Source: a phage. From it: DNA of 64,000 bases. Positions 310 to 45,280 of the stretch are shown here, piece after piece. Within the stretch, counting starts at the first letter, position 1; each line of letters opens with the position of its first letter. Both the position numbers and the translations under genes were made by a program. The DNA lies in the NCBI GenBank assembly GCA_024790105.1, contig GCA_024790105.1_3053.1. The stretch is one strand, 5' to 3'. Under the pieces are notes generated by a model, which did not search any database, was not told the DNA's origin, and saw nothing but the letters and a program-made list of their open reading frames with translations.

Positions 310-702
310 TCACTTAGTTAAATTTTTTACGCATGAATTATAAGAATTCACTACATACTCCATCGGAGCATTTTTACCAGTACGCCATTGGTAATTATTA
401 GCCCAATTAGCCCAAAGTTCTGCACAGTAATTTTCAATTTTTTCTTCGCGTGTAATTACATCCGAATTACGATATGCTTGAGCAGATTCATCTGGACGAA
501 TAGCTTCGTCAAAATTCGCCTGCATTTGTTCTACTGTTTGCTTTGGAGCTTCTTTATAACACTTGACATTAGGATTATAAAATTTGCTTGAACAGTTTAC
601 AATTTTTCCTACATCAGACTGATTTACTACCGGTCCTTGAGCTACACAACCAGTAAGACCTAATGCAATAACCAAAATAGCGATTTTCATTTCATTCTCC
701 AA
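310..702 (-). CDS. Predicted lipoprotein (T4 imm.1 position)
   Basis: 130 aa; N-terminal signal peptide with lipobox LTGC; immediately downstream of a promoter cassette. Confidence 0.5.
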   Translation of the reverse strand: MENEMKIAILVIALGLTGCVAQGPVVNQSDVGKIVNCSSKFYNPNVKCYKEAPKQTVEQMQANFDEAIRPDESAQAYRNSDVITREEKIENYCAELWANWANNYQWRTGKNAPMEYVVNSYNSCVKNLTK

Positions 703-727
703 ATCCGTATCAGTAGTTGATAGTTGT

Positions 728-757
728 ATAGTACCATAGAAGAACAGGGATGTAAAC
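728..757 (-). promoter_or_regulatory. T4 early-type promoter (-35 GTTTAC, 18-nt spacer, -10 TACTAT) within repeated cassette
   Basis: Reverse complement reads GTTTAC ... TGGTACTAT; A/T-rich UP region upstream; same cassette repeated elsewhere in window. Confidence 0.5.
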
Positions 758-843
758 AGTTTTGTGAAAAAAAAATTTTTAGGGAATCAAAAGGGTCCAG
801 AATCATCTCTTTTTCATAAGTATAGATTTATATTACTTGTATG

Positions 844-864
844 AAAAAGGGACCTGGAGGTCCC
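844..864 (-). terminator. Rho-independent terminator downstream of gene 43
   Basis: GGGACC-tgga-GGTCCC hairpin followed by T5 on the minus-strand transcript. Confidence 0.6.
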
Positions 865-877
865 TAGATTTATTCTA

Positions 878-26025: not shown

Positions 26026-27006
26026 TTATTTCAGAAGAGTAACCTCAGCGATTTCTTGCCAACCGTTTTTGTCGGTCATAATAAAGTCAGCAAGATAAAG
26101 TGCAGTACGCAGTGAAACATTGCGTAAACGATTAACATTGACTTTCATCCATGATAATGCTTTATAAGTTTCTTCATCAGAAAGACCGCGCTTTTGCATC
26201 ATGTCAGTTGAAAGAATAACATCTTCAACCCTGACCATAATTTCTTCATTAGTGTGAACACCCAAATCCAAATAAACTGAGCGGGACACTAATGCTTGTA
26301 AATGTGGAGCAAGTTTAGTACCACGGTCTAATTCGCGGTCAATGTCAACGTTTGTGATAAAAACAATCGTTCCTTTAAATTCAAACTCACGCTCAATGCC
26401 TTTTTCTTCTAAGTAAGAAGATGCGGTGCTCCAGCAGACTTTACGGGTCTCTCCAGTGTCCAGAGCAGCTTTTAGAAGATTAAGAATGTCCATATCAGAG
26501 AAAACATCCACATCGTCAATCAAAAGGACAGAATTCTCTTCACGATTATTCCAGAGTTGTTCATAAAGACCGATACCGGAGATTTTACCGTTAATGCTTT
26601 TATATTCAATGTATCCAATATCATTTGCTTTATTTAAAGCTTTATCTAAAGAATACGTTTTACCAATACCCGCCGCACCAGAGATAATTAATGAACGAAT
26701 GTTTCCGTTAATAATACCATTCGTCATCATTCCCATAACATTAAATCTTTTATTAATGCGGGTTTTCATATCTTCATATGATTCTTTAACTTCTTCAACT
26801 TTTACACCATCATATGAAATGTCTGATTTGTAAACCCAAACACCGCGACGCTTACCGTCAATTTCAACAAAAACTTTACCATCTCCTTGTGCATCTACCG
26901 GAGCATTATCTGGGAACCATTCACCTAAGAGCTCAAAAGTTCCAGAGATTTCTTTACCGAAGTAGATACCCTTATTGATAGTTACAGTTTTCATTTTATT
27001 CTCCAA
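26026..27006 (-). CDS. P-loop ATPase of unknown function
   Basis: Walker A GAAGIGKT and Walker B LLIDDVD; N-terminus MENKM fused to the cassette leader. Confidence 0.6.
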   Translation of the reverse strand: MENKMKTVTINKGIYFGKEISGTFELLGEWFPDNAPVDAQGDGKVFVEIDGKRRGVWVYKSDISYDGVKVEEVKESYEDMKTRINKRFNVMGMMTNGIINGNIRSLIISGAAGIGKTYSLDKALNKANDIGYIEYKSINGKISGIGLYEQLWNNREENSVLLIDDVDVFSDMDILNLLKAALDTGETRKVCWSTASSYLEEKGIEREFEFKGTIVFITNVDIDRELDRGTKLAPHLQALVSRSVYLDLGVHTNEEIMVRVEDVILSTDMMQKRGLSDEETYKALSWMKVNVNRLRNVSLRTALYLADFIMTDKNGWQEIAEVTLLK

Positions 27007-27031
27007 ATCTGTATCAGTAGTTGATAGTTGT

Positions 27032-27061
27032 ATAGTACCATAAAGCTTTATGCTTGTAAAC
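27032..27061 (-). promoter_or_regulatory. T4 early-type promoter cassette
   Basis: GTTTAC - 18 nt - TGGTACTAT. Confidence 0.5.
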
Positions 27062-27084
27062 AGTTTTGTGAAAAAATTTTTGAA

Positions 27085-27112
27085 ATAAAAAGGGGGACCT
27101 CTAGGGCCCCCT
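27085..27112 (-). terminator. Stem-loop terminator upstream of promoter cassette
   Basis: AGGGGGCC...GGTCCCCCT hairpin followed by T-tract on minus transcript. Confidence 0.55.
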
Positions 27113-27120
27113 TTATGCTT

Positions 27121-27621
27121 TTATTCCATTTCTATTATATGCATGTTCTTTTTGCTATCAAAATATATGTTTTTAACTGTTAACTCCGAATTAATTGGCA
27201 ATAAAAACTCTCTTTCATAATCTACCATACAAAGGTTATCATAAAGCTTGTTAAGCTTATCATCATCAGTTTGGCCAGATTCTTCAATTGCGATTAAATT
27301 TTCTAAAATGTCAATCATAGCAGTTGAATAGTCAAAAACGTTTGCATTTTTTAACACTACTAAAACATTAGTCATATAGCGTTCTGCAGCAAACGTTTCA
27401 GCTATATGAGACTCACTGCTAAAGGAAGTTATTCTTTTAAATTTGATTCTCCTATTAACTTCAAACTTATGAGATAGTACTTCCTCTATTGTAAGTCCTC
27501 TAAAAAGCACGTCTTTAATCTCAAGTTTGTCTTTAATGTAATCATTAACACGCTTATGATTAAAATCATTAATTTTGTTGCCAAGGCATTTCATTAAAAT
27601 ATGCATTGTGTTTCTCTTCAA
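27121..27621 (-). CDS. Hypothetical protein
   Basis: 166-aa ORF bounded by cassettes on both sides. Confidence 0.45.
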   Translation of the reverse strand: MKRNTMHILMKCLGNKINDFNHKRVNDYIKDKLEIKDVLFRGLTIEEVLSHKFEVNRRIKFKRITSFSSESHIAETFAAERYMTNVLVVLKNANVFDYSTAMIDILENLIAIEESGQTDDDKLNKLYDNLCMVDYEREFLLPINSELTVKNIYFDSKKNMHIIEME

Positions 27622-27653
27622 TTTTTAAAGAACAATTAATTAACTACAAATAT

Positions 27654-27683
27654 ATTATAATATGCTTTATGATAGAAGTAAAC
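27654..27683 (-). promoter_or_regulatory. T4 early-type promoter cassette
   Basis: GTTTAC - 18 nt - TATAAT. Confidence 0.5.
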
Positions 27684-27707
27684 AACTTTGTGAAAAATTT
27701 TTGAAAT

Positions 27708-27731
27708 AAAAAAGGGAGCCCGAAGGCTCCC
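27708..27731 (-). terminator. UUCG-loop stem-loop terminator
   Basis: GGGAGCC-cgaa-GGCTCCC followed by T6 on minus transcript. Confidence 0.55.
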
Positions 27732-27733
27732 TA

Positions 27734-33027: not shown

Positions 33028-33489
33028 TCATTGAGTTTTAATTACTGCTTTAGAAGCCTTTCCTGGTAAACGACGACTGTTAATAATTGCCATCCTGCAT
33101 TGAAGTAACGGGTTTTTGAACTTCTCATTAGGCTTACAAACCGTAAATCCAAGCCAAAGATTTCCATCTGTGATTTCTAAACGTCCAGGACGATATTCAA
33201 CCCCATCAATAAAATCCTCGTCAATGTCAGGACGCGGAGGCATACTCAGGAATTCATTAACTTCTAAAACATGGTCTTTTATTTTATGGAATAATTCAAA
33301 AACATATGTCTCATCAATCTCCCGTTGAATTGCACGATCAAGAAGATGTTGAGAATATTTTAGATGAAACGATGAGACCCCTGCTGCTTTTGATGCCTCA
33401 CGAATCTCATTGTTAATTTGACGAAACTCCGACTCAAAATGACGACGAAGCTTATTTCGACGGATAAAAACTTCTGTATTGATAGTCAT
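33028..33489 (-). CDS. regB: Endoribonuclease RegB
   Basis: 153 aa, T4 RegB length and sequence as recalled. Confidence 0.85.
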   Translation of the reverse strand: MTINTEVFIRRNKLRRHFESEFRQINNEIREASKAAGVSSFHLKYSQHLLDRAIQREIDETYVFELFHKIKDHVLEVNEFLSMPPRPDIDEDFIDGVEYRPGRLEITDGNLWLGFTVCKPNEKFKNPLLQCRMAIINSRRLPGKASKAVIKTQ

Positions 33490-34676: not shown

Positions 34677-35606
34677 TCAATTAGAAAATAAATTTATCCA
34701 AGATTGTTCTTTAATTAAAAATGGCTCAGAATCATATGCCATTAAACTCTGTGTGATTAGTCCTTTAAAAGGCCCATCAATAAATTCCATGGTAAAATAT
34801 GGAATTTTATTCATTAGCCGTGCATTAGGAGCAGTACACAAAACTCTGCATCCTTTGAATACGCCTTTTTGTAATTTGTATTGCTTGGGATAAAATTCGC
34901 TTAAAATGTTGTTATTTGCCAAAATTTCAAAATGATTCACCAATTTATTTTTAATAGTTTTTGGCGAAAAATAAAGATATTCGAAAAGCTGAGTGTCTGT
35001 CATCATTGCATTCCGATTACGAAAAAACTGTGGACGAGTAATACCACCAATACAACATTTAATATTACAGCAGCAGTGTACAGTGTCAATATGGACACTA
35101 TAAATCTTATCCATATCAGGAGATTTGACAGGCTCATCAATTATATACAAAATTCGCGAAAGCGATAAACCTCTGAACTTGCTTCCTTTATTACCAATAA
35201 AACTGCGCACAGAATCAGTAAATAAACGAAAACGTATATCATCATTAGAATAACGCGAAAATTCCTTTTTAATGTTATTTGCAGAAATTTTAGCGTAAGC
35301 TGAAGTATTAGAAAGAACAATAACTGTTCCACCGTCATACAACCAATTAGCGGCAAAATTAGTTACTGCAATTGATTTACCGGATTGACGTCCACCATCT
35401 ATACGAAGTGTGCAGTACTGTTTAAGTAATTCTTCAAATGGTGGGATATAATCGTTTTTACAAATTTCTTCTACTCTAGCGTCAGAATGGTGTGTAAAAG
35501 CATTCATCAGGGATAGATAAGGACCAGTTAAAAATGTTCTCATTTTATTCTCTCTAAATTTGGGCCATTCCATGGCGCATGAATTGTCCATTTCTGTATT
35601 TACCAC
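34677..35606 (-). CDS. P-loop NTPase of unknown function
   Basis: Walker A GGRQSGKS and Walker B-like LYIIDE; Cys cluster HCCCNIKCC; occupies region where T4 has vs.7/denV. Confidence 0.5.
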
Positions 35607-35623
35607 TCCAAGTAATTATGAAT

Positions 35624-35653
35624 ATACTATCACAATTCTAGGAGAAAGTAAAC
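35624..35653 (-). promoter_or_regulatory. T4 early-type promoter cassette (downstream flank of ipII)
   Basis: GTTTAC with A/T -10 region; near-identical to copy at 36020-36049. Confidence 0.45.
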
Positions 35654-35655
35654 TG

Positions 35656-35958
35656 TTATTTATCTTTAATTACTTTAGCTGCTTCGATAGCCGCTTGCTG
35701 AAGGTCATCCATAGACATACCGAATTTAGAAGCAAAGTTATCAATTTTCTTTTCGACAGCATTCAAAGGCTTGGCCTGTTTACCTTCATTAGCGCCAGGA
35801 AGAGCGAGAATACGCTCTTTGTCAATATAAAGGCTTACAAGTTTCTTACGGTCTTTATCGGACAAATCATGAAATGAATGGGCCTTTTTATTTATAGCGG
35901 CTTCTAATTTACCTGCACTCACTCGCGCTTCAGTAATAAATTCTTGATATGTTTTCAT
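35656..35958 (-). CDS. ipII: Internal protein II-like (capsid-targeted)
   Basis: 100 aa; N-terminal MKTYQEFITEA capsid targeting sequence typical of T4 internal proteins. Confidence 0.7.
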   Translation of the reverse strand: MKTYQEFITEARVSAGKLEAAINKKAHSFHDLSDKDRKKLVSLYIDKERILALPGANEGKQAKPLNAVEKKIDNFASKFGMSMDDLQQAAIEAAKVIKDK

Positions 35959-36019
35959 ATGTTTCCTTTAAATGTAAATATTTTAATTGGTAATTGACTG
36001 TTCAAATAACTGTGAATAT

Positions 36020-36049
36020 ATATTATCACAATTCTAGGAGAAAGTAAAC
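36020..36049 (-). promoter_or_regulatory. T4 early-type promoter cassette (upstream flank of ipII)
   Basis: GTTTAC - 18 nt - TAATAT. Confidence 0.45.
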
Positions 36050-36053
36050 AACT

Positions 36054-37022
<969 letters not shown>

Positions 37023-38861: not shown

Positions 38862-39455
38862 TTATTTCAGAGAATTAATGTATTCCTGAACATCGGCAGA
38901 AGTGGTTTCAACCCCAGAAATATTACCGTTAAAGGTTTCAACTCGAGCAAGAGTATCTTCAATATCAACCTTAGTTAGCGCTGCGATTTCAACTACATCA
39001 TCGGCAGTACTAATTCCAAGGGCATTTGCCGCACGAGTTTCACGGATATATTCCAATTTAACTGCAAGTTCTTGGCGAGCATCATCTAACTCAACTACTT
39101 TCTTGGCGATTTCAATTCGCATTTCAGCATAACCATCAGCCTTAGTAGTCAACTGTTCAGCTGTTCGACGATATAGCAAACCGAGTTTAGCATGCATTGT
39201 TACATCTTGACCCTCGGAAAGAAGCTTGCGAATTTCACGCTCTTTTGATTCGGCTTGTCGATTCTTTTCGATAACAAGTTCACGAATACGTTTTTCTTCA
39301 TTAATAGATTTAACAGAAGCAGTTTTTAGATCTTTAATTTTATCAAGCAGTTTTGCTGCTGCAGCAGTATACTGTTCTTCAACAGATAGATTTTTAGCCA
39401 TAGCAGAACCAAGTTTAGTGCGAATAAACTCAACAATTTTCTTCAGTGTGTTCAT
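38862..39455 (-). CDS. Coiled-coil protein (PspA-like?)
   Basis: 197 aa predicted largely helical/coiled-coil; weak resemblance to PspA/IM30 by eye. Confidence 0.45.
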
Positions 39456-39556
39456 AGTATTTCCTTAGGTTAATTGAGATTTAAAATCCGTAGGAGTATA
39501 ATACTCTATCGTCAAATTATAGGCTCATAATATCTCAATCATGAGCCTGTGTAAAC

Positions 39557-39832
39557 TTATTTCATATTATTGAAATATTCTTCTGCAATTTCGTCGTTAT
39601 CATGATAAACTTTAGAAGACAGTTTAACATAACCTTCAGCAGTGAACATGTTAATCACAACCTTTACAGTATACCACTGACCGTCTTCATTACCCATTAC
39701 TGCGTAAGTTTCAAACATCGGATGGTCAGGACCGATAACTTTAATATCATTCACTGTACGACCAAAATCTTCTGAAACACATTTCATAAAGAAGTTGAAC
39801 AGTTCGCCGTAATTATCCATTTCATTCTCCAA
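39557..39832 (-). CDS. Hypothetical protein with MENEM N-terminus
   Basis: 91-aa ORF fused to the conserved cassette leader. Confidence 0.45.
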   Translation of the reverse strand: MENEMDNYGELFNFFMKCVSEDFGRTVNDIKVIGPDHPMFETYAVMGNEDGQWYTVKVVINMFTAEGYVKLSSKVYHDNDEIAEEYFNNMK

Positions 39833-39863
39833 GTTGTTTTCTGTATCAGTAGTTGATAGTTGT

Positions 39864-39893
39864 ATAGTACCATGGAAGAACAGGGATGTAAAC
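39864..39893 (-). promoter_or_regulatory. T4 early-type promoter cassette
   Basis: GTTTAC - 18 nt - TGGTACTAT. Confidence 0.5.
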
Positions 39894-40022
39894 AGTTTTG
39901 TGAAAAATTTTTTAAAAAGTTTTGGGGAATTCTAGGGCAAGGAGGGGAAATCAAAGGATAGGATAATATATTATAAAGGGTAGAAACTAAATGATGCCTA
40001 GAGAGGCCTGGAAAGGCCTAGA

Positions 40023-40058
40023 TACCAAAAAGCCCCAACCTTTTGGTCGGGGCTAAGA
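40023..40058 (-). terminator. Rho-independent terminator (copy 1 of 36-bp direct repeat)
   Basis: AGCCCCGACC-aaaa-GGTTGGGGCT hairpin followed by T5 on minus transcript. Confidence 0.6.
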
Positions 40059-43997: not shown

Positions 43998-44183
43998 TTA
44001 TTCACCTTTAGAAATTTTATCCATAACGATAGCAATTAAACCAATTAAAAATGCTACTACAAGTGAAAACACATTTTCTGCTGTAGTTAATAATCCACAT
44101 ATAAATCCAACAAACATTGAAAAACTAAAAGCGGAAGCAGAAATTGCAATAGCAACATTTCGAATTAATTCACAACGTTTCAT
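43998..44183 (-). CDS. Small membrane protein
   Basis: 61 aa, two hydrophobic helices; directly downstream of promoter cassette. Confidence 0.4.
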   Translation of the reverse strand: MKRCELIRNVAIAISASAFSFSMFVGFICGLLTTAENVFSLVVAFLIGLIAIVMDKISKGE

Positions 44184-44211
44184 TTTATTCTCCTCGGTAG
44201 TTGATAGGGTA

Positions 44212-44241
44212 ATAGTATCACAACTAAAACCCTATGTAAAC
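44212..44241 (-). promoter_or_regulatory. T4 early-type promoter cassette (downstream flank of ipI-like gene)
   Basis: GTTTAC - 18 nt - TACTAT, with -10 embedded in an inverted repeat. Confidence 0.5.
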
Positions 44242-44253
44242 AACTTTGTGAAA

Positions 44254-44511
44254 TTATTTTAAATCTTCTAATCGTTTCTTCATCTTAGAACCATTTTTAG
44301 CAATTTCTCCTGCATCGGAGCATAATGCTAAAAGTGCTTTAACTTTAGTTTGGTCTCCTTTAAAAGATGAAGGATCGACTGCAGCAGCAAGTTCTTTAAT
44401 ACGAGAGAAAAGACGCTCAGCTTCAGCTAAAGCCATTCCAAGCTTTACTTCCATGCCATGAGAAGATTCAGTAATAGTAGTTTTTGTAGCAAACTCTTTG
44501 AAAGTTTTCAT
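44254..44511 (-). CDS. ipI: Internal protein I-like (capsid-targeted small protein)
   Basis: 85 aa; N-terminus MKTFKEFATKTTITE resembles IP capsid targeting sequence; adjacent to 57B as T4 ipI. Confidence 0.55.
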   Translation of the reverse strand: MKTFKEFATKTTITESSHGMEVKLGMALAEAERLFSRIKELAAAVDPSSFKGDQTKVKALLALCSDAGEIAKNGSKMKKRLEDLK

Positions 44512-44541
44512 TTTATTTTCCTAATTAATTTTGATGAGGTA

Positions 44542-44571
44542 ATAGTATCACTACCTCATCAGTATGTAAAC
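44542..44571 (-). promoter_or_regulatory. T4 early-type promoter cassette (upstream flank of ipI-like gene)
   Basis: GTTTAC - 18 nt - TACTAT inside inverted repeat GATGAGGTA...TACCTCATC. Confidence 0.5.
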
Positions 44572-44583
44572 AACTTTGTGAAA

Positions 44584-45280
<697 letters not shown>

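Follow-up and report, generated by a model that had tools for sequence, protein, structure and literature searches.

Do three otherwise unrelated phage proteins share an N-terminus that travelled with their promoter? In the window analyzed here (a single 64,000-nucleotide stretch of phage DNA, numbered from its first letter), the sequence-only reading had proposed that three ORFs with near-identical leaders all begin MEN(E/K)M and that recombination had fused these cassette-derived codons to different genes. The window comes from a T2/T4-like coliphage (Tequatrovirus), with 95-99% identity to Tequatrovirus genomes, and comparison with annotated relatives mapped the three ORFs to imm.1, nrdC.10 and e.8. 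Based on Pfam and a motif check, the functional labels proposed for the proteins fit loosely: Imm.1 has a signal peptide (MKIAILVIALGLTGC) with a lipobox, plus DUF5481, and NrdC.10 has the Walker A motif GAAGIGKT, but AAA/STAND matches of the latter fell below Pfam thresholds. The e.8 protein had no family match in Pfam, which also gave no function linking the three proteins.

Our analysis indicates that the shared 'MEN(E/K)M' is almost certainly an untranslated ribosome-binding site read as codons rather than protein, an artefact that arises when ORFs are called across a regulatory cassette of a known kind. The best explanation, to which we assign a probability of roughly 0.9, is that the genes follow three copies of one T-even early-promoter cassette of the PeSL (promoter-early stem-loop) class, with an AUG start and a predicted RegB site, which acts as a recombination substrate. 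This cassette type is already known, and the current view of T4 gene expression is unchanged.

A unit of ~95 nt is repeated upstream of each gene, composed in order of an A/T-rich tract, a -35 box (GTTTACA), 17 nt with TGG at the end, a -10 box (TACTAT) and a C/A-rich, unstructured leader of ~31-37 nt, followed by TTGGAGAAT(A/G)AAATG (UUGGAGAAU(A/G)AAAUG in RNA form). The 20-mer CAACTATCAACTACTGATAC was found exactly three times in the window, always on the minus strand (707-726, 27011-27030 and 39843-39862), compared with 0.02 occurrences expected from shuffles, and TTGGAGAATRAAATG is exact at 688-702, 26992-27006 and 39818-39832. When the three copies were aligned, identity ran from approximately -50 (TTTTTCACAAAACTGTTTACA) through the -10 box and the entire leader and ended at the ATG, past which imm.1 and nrdC.10 have four further bases in common (AAAA) and e.8 differs immediately. 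The alignment and the exact 20-mer therefore bear out the claim of near-identical leaders, and one cassette, including the ribosome-binding site, precedes all three genes and extends to the ATG rather than ending short of it. The 39-mer that had been quoted as the common leader, on the other hand, is a hybrid present nowhere in the window: the real leaders read ...ACGG...GAATGAAATG at imm.1 and ...ACAG...GAATAAAATG at nrdC.10, and e.8 has a 6-nt insertion (GAAAACAAC) relative to those two copies.

The tract AAAAATTTTTT(T)CACAAAAC lies 5' of the -35 box in all three copies, and a promoter scan identified TTTACA-17-TACTAT with TG at 756-728, 27060-27032 and 39892-39864. From these motifs, all three copies are predicted to be active promoters, with transcription starts as given below. 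Predicted leader folds were no better than those of shuffles (z = +0.91 for nrdC.10, and -0.21 and +0.56 for the other two copies), by which a structured leader or riboswitch-like element was rejected, and both the MFE and the centroid predictions left the Shine-Dalgarno (SD) sequence unpaired in all three. The imm.1 and e.8 leaders also contain an out-of-frame mini-ORF (AUGAAAUGA), with its AUG 1 nt past GGAG, which is absent from nrdC.10.

The imm.1 copy is made up as follows:
848-865, minus strand: hairpin terminator 3' of gene 43 (terminator scan), ~90 nt upstream of the -35 box of the imm.1 promoter
728-780, minus strand: imm.1 early promoter with A/T tract (sequence, alignment and scan), with -35 TTTACA at 751-756, TGG at 734-736 and -10 TACTAT at 728-733
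691-721, minus strand: imm.1 5' leader, predicted to start near A721, with the TTG at 700-702
690-700, minus strand: GGAGAATGAAA, the SD with a 10/11 fit to the RegB/S1 consensus
310-690, minus strand: imm.1 CDS from the real ATG, 126 aa (a 381-nt CDS in T4T and fPS-2)

The fPS-2 record has both a terminator and a 'predicted early promoter' at the corresponding position. The nrdC.10 copy is bounded by its own hairpin:
27093-27111, minus strand: hairpin terminator (GGGGGCC-CTAGA-GGTCCCC, then a T run; terminator scan and sequence), marking the 5' limit of the nrdC.10 copy and the end of the upstream modA-like gene
27061-27090, minus strand: UP-like tract of the nrdC.10 early promoter, rich in A/T (TTTTATTTCAAAAATTTTTTCACAAAACTG; sequence)
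27032-27060, minus strand: nrdC.10 early promoter core (TG-extended promoter scan), with -35 TTTACA at 27055-27060, TGG at 27038-27040 and -10 TACTAT at 27032-27037
26995-27025, minus strand: nrdC.10 5' untranslated leader (sequence), with transcription probably starting near A27025 given a 7-nt distance to the -10 box
27004-27006, minus strand: TTG giving the apparent 'MENKM', in frame and inside the leader
26994-27004, minus strand: GGAGAATAAAA, the SD GGAG (27001-27004) with an A-rich tail
26026-26994, minus strand: nrdC.10 CDS from the real ATG, 322 aa, a Walker-A protein (a 969-nt CDS in SV76 and T4T)

The 17-nt spacer of this promoter holds a 14-nt palindrome (CATAAAGCTTTATG). For e.8, the nearest terminator-like hairpin (40031-40054) lies ~140 nt upstream of the -35 box, and the copy itself comprises:
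39864-39915, minus strand: e.8 early promoter with A/T tract and TGG (sequence, alignment and scan), with -35 TTTACA at 39887-39892 and -10 TACTAT at 39864-39869
39821-39857, minus strand: e.8 5' leader, predicted to start near A39857
39830-39832, minus strand: in-frame TTG
39820-39830, minus strand: GGAGAATGAAA, the SD with a 10/11 fit to the RegB/S1 consensus
39557-39820, minus strand: e.8 CDS from the real ATG, 87 aa (a 264-nt CDS in RB51 and T4T)

This organization closely resembles that of PeSLs, which by definition finish, at the 3' extremity, with the SD and the start codon of the gene that follows, and which mediate indels (Arbiol et al. 2010, PMC2839356; Comeau et al. 2014, PMC4122927). 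Promoter and terminator activity and the formation of mini-circles were addressed by reporter assays and inverse PCR in Arbiol et al. 2010. Both are repeated composites in which a sigma-70-type early promoter follows an A/T-rich tract and has a stem-loop terminator associated with it; all three window copies fit the T4/PST PeSL promoter consensus, TTTACW-N17-TAYWAT (PMC2839356/PMC4122927); GGAG, 6 nt and ATG close the shared sequence in each copy; and insertions, deletions and replacements are found between close relatives. The window copies differ in being alike over the entire transcribed leader (~95 nt), beyond the promoter alone. The stem-loop is cleanly present only at nrdC.10, where the hairpin at 27093-27111 and its T run adjoin the A/T tract, because the nearest hairpins of imm.1 and e.8 are ~90 and ~140 nt away from the -35 box. 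The copies also resemble the 'uber' early promoters of T4, which combine UP, -35, TGn and -10 elements with conserved positions near the start site (Hinton 2010, PMC2988021). The window copies have all of these features, with an UP-like tract and GTTTAC as the -35 sequence, and the nrdC.10 copy is the orthologue of a T4 promoter annotated with -35/-10 as 'early promoter 54.4' in U76612.1, where the site orthologous to the 27093-27111 hairpin is likewise annotated 'terminator'. We found no substantive difference from this class, only small leader variants (window CAACTACTGATACAG vs T4 CAACTGATACGG).

The end of the cassette has a second reading, as a target of RegB, a phage endoribonuclease that acts with ribosomal protein S1 and cuts GGAG. 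In published work (Durand et al. 2006, PMC1702504; Uzan & Miller 2010, PMC3014915), the RegB/S1 consensus is given as GGAGRAYARAA, with A at positions 6, 8, 10 and 11, a pyrimidine at 7 and no C at 5, 6 or 9, and the T4 optimum as GGAGAAUAAAA. All intergenic T4 GGAG sites were tested, with 24 found to be well cut, by Durand et al. 2006 (PMC1702504), whose accessible text does not name imm.1, nrdC.10 or e.8. All three leaders have GGAG (GGA plus G at position 4). The nrdC.10 sequence GGAGAATAAAA, its last A being the A of the ATG, fits the consensus at 11/11 positions and is the same as the T4 optimum, while imm.1 and e.8 fit at 10/11. Like the T4 sites, these are 11-nt stretches of GGAG and A-rich sequence that are predicted to be single-stranded, directly 3' of an early promoter and within the translation-initiation region, and the window also encodes regB:
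33028-33489, minus strand: regB, a 153-aa ORF whose first 200 nt are 98% identical to T4T regB, with GGAGAATAACATG as its own ribosome-binding site

They differ from the T4 sites in that imm.1 and e.8 replace one of the three most strongly conserved A residues, that at position 8, by G, and in that the three window sites are predicted targets, at which RegB would be expected to cleave given the consensus. Across the window, GGAGRAYARAA with <=1 mismatch occurred 17 times versus 11 expected, a weak enrichment reached by 4/100 shuffles. RegB and GGAG are not mentioned in the PeSL papers (PMC2839356, PMC4122927), and the correspondence between the final 11 nt of the cassette and the RegB/S1 consensus is a small addition that joins two literatures without cross-citation here.

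Next, we consider how the cassette is distributed. Matches to it were found in 515 phage records, at 1893 places. When IMG/VR was scanned for exact copies of the 20-mer, only 8 loci were obtained, which was too few for statistics, and protein-anchored loci were used. Comparison of junctions upheld the proposal that the cassette is linked to different genes in related phages. Within the window, a further copy lies close to that of nrdC.10:
27654-27732, minus strand: second cassette copy, upstream of the modA-like gene (repeat and scans), with a hairpin at 27713-27732, an A/T tract, -35 TTTACT and -10 TATAAT

The UP-like tract at 27061-27090 is common to this promoter (27654-27682) and to the imm.1 and e.8 copies, and the second copy is a direct repeat of the nrdC.10 cassette over the upstream half of the latter (27056-27099 / 27678-27721; 44 nt, 80% identical, 622 nt apart). 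The modA-like gene is thus found between two direct cassette copies, compared with T4, where there is one hybrid copy and the gene is absent. In other phages, of the G8 type, a 246-nt ORF bounded by ATGAAAAT repeats is located between the cassette and imm.1. Identical nrdC.10 genes were found behind three different promoters (loci L014, L015 and L017), and GGAGAATAAAATATG connects the same cassette to a 59-aa ORF at two loci (L021 and L045). Finally, the nrdC.10 leader and imm.1 spacer of the window carry e.8-type variants that are missing from the orthologous T4 copies. These results from a new T2/T4-like genome confirm that early-promoter cassettes end exactly at the start codon, at points of gene insertion and deletion.

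Because the ~95-nt copies are near-identical, they are probably substrates for homologous recombination, which inserts, deletes and swaps genes behind the copies and patches the copies against each other. In the mechanism we propose, host sigma-70 RNA polymerase would fire the cassette promoters right after infection and ribosomes would initiate at AUG, with GGAG as the SD 6 nt before it. The sequence GGAGAAU(A/G)AAA would double as the 11-nt recognition sequence of RegB and S1, and some minutes later cleavage by RegB at GG^AG would inactivate the messages. At about even odds, a gene placed behind the cassette would inherit this complete on-then-off programme, in which transcription is immediate-early, initiation is strong and RegB times the inactivation, and patchy gene conversion would keep the copies alike over 13-39 kb.

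How much of the cassette moves as a unit can be read in two ways. It is possible, although rather unlikely, that the last ~13 nt (GGAGAAU(A/G)AAAUG) are alike due to independent selection for an optimal SD and RegB/S1 site, in which case the recombining unit would be the promoter and the first ~25 nt of the leader. For example, GGAGAATAAAATG persists at nrdC.10 in L015 and L017, where another promoter and leader have taken over, and is present in 75-79%-identical nrdC.10 homologues with unrelated leaders and at trna.4 under a different promoter; e.8 homologues under another promoter retain GGAGAGTAAAATG, and motA of phage G8 shares the promoter and ~30 nt of leader with its own SD block. Two sets of junctions argue for transfer of the entire cassette: at the imm.1 indel, where the junction falls at ATGAAAAT, cassette and block move together, the inserted ORF gaining GGAGAATAAAATG and imm.1 being left with TTGAGGAAATTATTATG, and at L021 and L045 the nrdC.10-type cassette including TTGGAGAATAAAAT is found on a different gene. 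Independent selection and cassette transfer are compatible with each other.

The cassette reading leaves the apparent peptide to be explained. ORF 26026-27006 does open at TTG and read MENKM, but the first 'M' is TTG in all three ORFs, and the MEN(E/K)M beginning holds only under the convention that an ORF starts at the first ATG, GTG or TTG after a stop. The TTG is in frame 12 bases upstream of the ATG and overlaps the SD GGAG, which is spaced 6 nt from the ATG. It is solely the SD-to-AUG distance, adding up to 12 nt, that puts the UUG in frame, and MEN(E/K)M appears because UUG-GAG-AAU-RAA-AUG is read as codons. Predicted pairing with the anti-SD was -6.4 kcal/mol before the ATG versus +0.2 to +0.6 kcal/mol before the TTG. 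All three genes begin at the ATG in curated T4, T2-type and RB51 records, including U76612.1 (T4) for the nrdC.10 CDS, and SV76 annotates a ribosome-binding site 6 nt upstream of the nrdC.10 ATG. In public databases, ATG forms were found on 18, 521 and 618 contigs, compared with 0, 1 and 2 for TTG forms. Literature searches returned only unrelated matches for papers naming nrdC.10, imm.1 or e.8, and nothing usable on their start sites from N-terminal, ribosome profiling or toeprint work.

Homologues gave the same answer. Across 34 nrdC.10 loci, the ATG and the motif M-x-T-[IV]-T-I-x-K-G are conserved, while the codon at -12 is of a non-start type in 24 (AAG, GAG, TCG, ACG and others), 19 are without an in-frame ATG, GTG or TTG back to the nearest upstream stop, and 6 distant homologues have an in-frame TAA at -9. 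The -12 codon of e.8 is AAG, a non-start, in 5/10 homologues, and those from Karamvirus start six residues further in. An identical Imm.1 (MKIAILVIAL) is found behind another ORF or different upstream sequence in four phages (L052-L055), where it has its own SD (GAGG), the upstream frame is closed by a stop at -30 and no other start codon is available. On the cargo of L021 and L045, where the cassette is in another register, the TTG frame reads LENKI-stop and ends after five codons. SD pairing, curated annotations, homologues and alternative junctions thus contradict a cassette-derived N-terminus, and the real start codons lie further downstream, at the ATG, which gives the N-termini MKIAIL..., MKTVTI... 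and MDNYGE... for Imm.1, NrdC.10 and e.8.

Dual initiation, with AUG as the main start and a minor share of UUG initiation producing low-abundance isoforms four residues longer, is improbable. Bacteria legitimately use UUG as a start codon, and here it lies within the predicted transcript, in an unstructured leader and a frame that is open in all three copies. However, an SD-bound ribosome sits on the AUG and not on a codon that overlaps the SD, the UUG is without a separate SD, and neither the UUG nor its frame is conserved in homologues, and therefore any longer isoform would have no conserved role. Translation from the TTG, whereby Imm.1, NrdC.10 and e.8 would carry a cassette-encoded MEN(E/K)M fused by recombination, has a negligible chance of being correct: the codon is in frame, within the predicted transcript, kept in all three copies and many close relatives and called by a few automated annotations (Imm.1 of 130 aa in phage 132; e.8 of 91 aa in Phaginator), but the pairing, homologue, junction and annotation evidence above is against it, and, judging from the sequence and from what is generally known of signal peptides, adding the acidic M-E-N-E would invert the charge of the n-region in the Imm.1 signal peptide. 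These findings suggest that caution is needed when ORFs are called from the first ATG, GTG or TTG, which can make a false shared peptide out of a conserved phage ribosome-binding site; the same over-extension is present in a few public records.

A real counterpart to the proposed fusion exists in the internal proteins (IP) of T-even phages, which are unrelated but share a translated N-terminal capsid-targeting sequence. Repoila and colleagues reportedly described, in 1994, conserved 5' flanks around variable genes at T-even IP loci. Both systems have variable cargo behind a conserved promoter and 5' end. They differ in that the shared codons of IP genes are downstream of the ATG and conserved as protein, whereas the block shared by imm.1, nrdC.10 and e.8 is upstream of the ATG and, among the homologues, is not conserved as a translated N-terminus. 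The window itself contains two IP-type genes, ipII (MKTYQEFITE...) and an 85-aa ORF (MKTFKEFATK...).

Compared with hundreds of Tequatrovirus genomes (T2, T4, the RB-series and T4-like phages of Shigella, Yersinia and Salmonella), the window showed 95-99% identity, and position and annotation in T4T, SV76 (T2 species), RB51 and fPS-2 identified the three ORFs as imm.1, nrdC.10 and e.8:

310-690 (from ATG) or 310-702 (from TTG), minus strand: imm.1
26026-26994 (from ATG) or 26026-27006 (from TTG), minus strand: nrdC.10
39557-39820 (from ATG) or 39557-39832 (from TTG), minus strand: e.8

T4 e.7 is missing from the window (39455-39560); the e.8 stop abuts the -35 of the e.6 promoter (GTTTACA at 39556), and the e.6 ATG lies at 39455.

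The sequence-only reading held that the three genes have near-identical leaders and, with them, a cassette-derived MEN(E/K)M N-terminus. The repeat is exact and non-random (CAACTATCAACTACTGATAC occurs exactly three times in the window versus 0.02 expected, and the exact occurrences of TTGGAGAATRAAATG are the starts of the three genes), but the 39-mer quoted for it is a hybrid nowhere present as such. When the leaders and ORF starts were aligned, identity ran from about -50 (TTTTTCACAAAACTGTTTACA) through the -10 and the entire leader up to the ATG, where it stopped; the MEN(E/K)M bases precede this ATG. Four extra bases (AAAA) past it are common to imm.1 and nrdC.10, while e.8 differs directly after the ATG and has a 6-nt insertion in its leader relative to the other copies. 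The codon of the initial 'M' is TTG rather than ATG in all three ORFs, and 26026-27006 was listed because the caller accepts the first ATG, GTG or TTG after a stop codon.

Five lines of evidence favored the ATG: anti-Shine-Dalgarno pairing, annotations, homologues, alternative junctions and a TTG frame that runs into a stop. A Shine-Dalgarno (SD) GGAG lies 6 nt before each ATG and is overlapped by the TTG, with a best 16S anti-SD pairing of -6.4 kcal/mol ahead of the ATG versus +0.2 to +0.6 ahead of the TTG. Curated CDSs begin at the ATG (381 nt for imm.1, 969 nt for nrdC.10 and 264 nt for e.8), and SV76 has the ribosome-binding site marked 6 nt upstream. Among 37 nrdC.10 homologue loci from IMG/VR, 34 could be aligned from residue 1. 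Each of these retains the ATG and has an N-terminus of the form M-x-T-[IV]-T-I-x-K-G; the -12 codon is not start-type in 24 (AAG, GAG, TCG, ACG and others), and 19 have zero in-frame ATG, GTG or TTG back to the nearest upstream stop. Six distant nrdC.10 homologues carry TAA at -9. The -12 codon is AAG in five of ten e.8 homologues, and those of Karamvirus start six residues further in. Four phages encode the same Imm.1 (98-100% identical, MKIAILVIAL...) behind another ORF, where it is preceded by a separate SD (TTGAGGAAATTATTATG) and by an in-frame stop at -30, with no other start available. Finally, in the flanks of two nrdC.10 homologues (L021 and L045), an nrdC.10-type cassette is fused via GGAGAATAAAATATG to a 59-aa ORF (MITAEQIKEM...), and the TTG frame reads LENKI-stop because the ATG sits 2 nt farther from GGAG. 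The cassette before this ORF ends in TTGGAGAATAAAATATG (L021, ~1100-1412); the L045 copy lacks its -35 half and is degraded.

The pairing, annotation, homologue and junction evidence thus places the true starts downstream of the TTG, and the common 'N-terminus' is an ORF-calling artefact. Public protein collections agree: ATG forms of the three proteins occur on 18, 521 and 618 contigs versus 0, 1 and 2 for TTG-extended forms. Trace initiation at UUG besides AUG is very improbable. A literature search found no direct N-terminal or ribosome-profiling data for imm.1, nrdC.10 or e.8. Databases also hold over-extended forms reaching into the promoter or leader (361, 377 and 378 aa for NrdC.10; 91, 96, 100, 101 and 104 aa for e.8; 130 aa for Imm.1), and wrong names have been propagated in them: NrdC.10 and e.8 are called 'thioredoxin', Imm.1 'iduronate sulfatase'. 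In the imm.1 and e.8 leaders, a mini-ORF AUG-AAA-UGA (691-696 and 39821-39826) begins out of frame 1 nt past GGAG and overlaps the true AUG; it is probably unused and is missing from the nrdC.10 leader (GAATAAAATG).

The repeat is instead an untranslated regulatory cassette of known kind, as described for T4 early promoters, promoter-early stem-loops (PeSLs) and RegB sites. From 5' to 3', each copy comprises an A/T-rich tract, -35 GTTTACA, a 17-nt spacer with terminal TGG, -10 TACTAT, ACAACTATCAACTACTGATAC(A/G)G... and TTGGAGAAT(A/G)AAATG. A consensus scan placed the promoters (TTTACA-17-TACTAT with TG extension), listed here with the hairpin closest to a cassette:

756-728, minus strand: imm.1 promoter
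27060-27032, minus strand: nrdC.10 promoter
39892-39864, minus strand: e.8 promoter
27093-27111, minus strand: hairpin and T run directly upstream of the nrdC.10 cassette

The nearest upstream hairpins lie ~90 nt from the imm.1 copy and ~140 nt from the e.8 copy. At the orthologous T4 nrdC.10 site, the original T4 entry (U76612.1) annotates a terminator, -35 (GTTTAC) and -10 (TACTATA) as 'early promoter 54.4', with the CDS from the ATG; ahead of imm.1, the fPS-2 annotation shows a terminator followed by the label 'predicted early promoter'. About 15 more early-promoter-like sites lie on the window's minus strand. Those of nrdC.8 and mobD.5 have TGGTACTATACAACTATC(AACTAC) in common, each followed by its own ribosome-binding site, and are consistent with T4 early promoters, which are UP/-35/TGn/-10 promoters with additional conserved positions (PMC2988021). 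In divergent T4-like phages (L014-L050, the IMG/VR nrdC.10 set), a (C/T)(C/T)ATCAAA(C/T)AAA-like element lies 5-6 nt past the -10 of nrdC.10 promoters, around the predicted transcription start, and GGAGAATAAAATG is kept at the ribosome-binding site despite unrelated promoter spacers.

GGAG is both the commonest T4 SD and the cleavage site of RegB, an endoribonuclease that inactivates early mRNAs a few minutes post infection; with ribosomal protein S1 it targets an 11-nt single-stranded site (consensus GGAGRAYARAA; stated T4 optimum GGAGAAUAAAA), and regB's own SD is a known cleavage site (PMC1702504, PMC3014915). The nrdC.10 site GGAGAATAAAA matches this consensus at 11/11 positions, its final A being the A of the ATG, and the imm.1 and e.8 sites GGAGAATGAAA match at 10/11. 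Leaders folded no better than shuffles (z = +0.91 for nrdC.10, -0.21 and +0.56), with the SD predicted unpaired. The nrdC.10-type block is also found upstream of trna.4, which has a different promoter, and regB itself is preceded by a near-match:

33028-33489, minus strand: regB

Window-wide, the motif is only weakly enriched (17 found versus 11 expected). From the consensus, RegB is predicted to cut all three leaders. The only mildly new part is the match between the cassette's 3' end and a predicted optimal RegB/S1 site, by which a gene behind it would plausibly inherit both switch-on and timed switch-off.

Recombination of the cassette with varied cargo genes held at the DNA level, where it is already published for PeSLs, but not for the MEN(E/K)M codons, which are untranslated. 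PeSLs are repeated elements (A/T tract, early promoter and stem-loop; T4/PST consensus TTTACW-N17-TAYWAT) that carry at their 3' end the SD and start codon of the next gene and mediate insertion, deletion and exchange of genes between copies (PMC2839356, PMC4122927). Such behaviour was observed directly in the window and its relatives. A 161-aa modA-like gene (27121-27606, minus strand) lies between direct copies of the cassette's terminator/UP/-35 part (27056-27099 and 27678-27721), which are 80% identical and 622 nt apart (27056-27732); SV76 carries this gene, T4T lacks it and has a single hybrid copy, and the arrangement resembles a textbook indel bounded by PeSLs. In G8-type phages (L009:6215-6899; also L010 and L053-L055), a 78-aa ORF (MKIVMGCLAVCLVA..., MKIVMGC...; 246 nt) separates an imm.1-type cassette from imm.1, which there has a different SD (GAGG). 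The edges of this 246-nt indel are the 8-nt repeat ATGAAAAT (versus window 688-702), and the cassette-cargo junction therefore lies at the start codon. Three different promoters precede identical nrdC.10 genes (L014, L015 and L017), phage G8 motA has the promoter and ~30 nt of leader in common with the cassette, and a cassette search returned 1893 places in 515 phage records.

Comparison with three other loci (L013, L001 and L016) revealed mosaic variants: the window's nrdC.10 leader (27011-27030) is of e.8/motA type (CAACTACTGATACAG) versus CAACTGATACGG in T4T, SV76 and G8, and the imm.1 spacer (737-750) reads TCCCTG, the e.8 type, in both the window and fPS-2 versus AGACTG in T4T. These variants suggest that copies 13-39 kb apart are mixed by patchy gene conversion. 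Because GGAGAATAAAATG stays with nrdC.10 despite promoter swaps, selection (SD and RegB site) may partly keep the last 13 nt in place, beyond travel with the cassette.

Two promoters in the window with a common GTTTACTTTCTCCTAGAATTGTGATA(A/G)TAT (35560-36080; -35 boxes at 36049 and 35653) lie either side of ipII (35656-35958); relative to T4T, denV and ipIII are missing, and a 304-aa ORF (34677-35591) covers the T4 vs.7-vs.8 region. Adjacent promoters at 43998-44601 (-35 boxes at 44571 and 44241) have one UP/-35 block in common. The first drives an 85-aa ORF (44254-44511) whose N-terminus, MKTFKEFATK..., resembles that of internal proteins such as ipII (MKTYQEFITE); in the 50-kb T4T stretch compared (26000-75900), this ORF had no match. 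The second drives trna.4 (43998-44183), with the perfect RegB consensus GGAGAATAAAATG.
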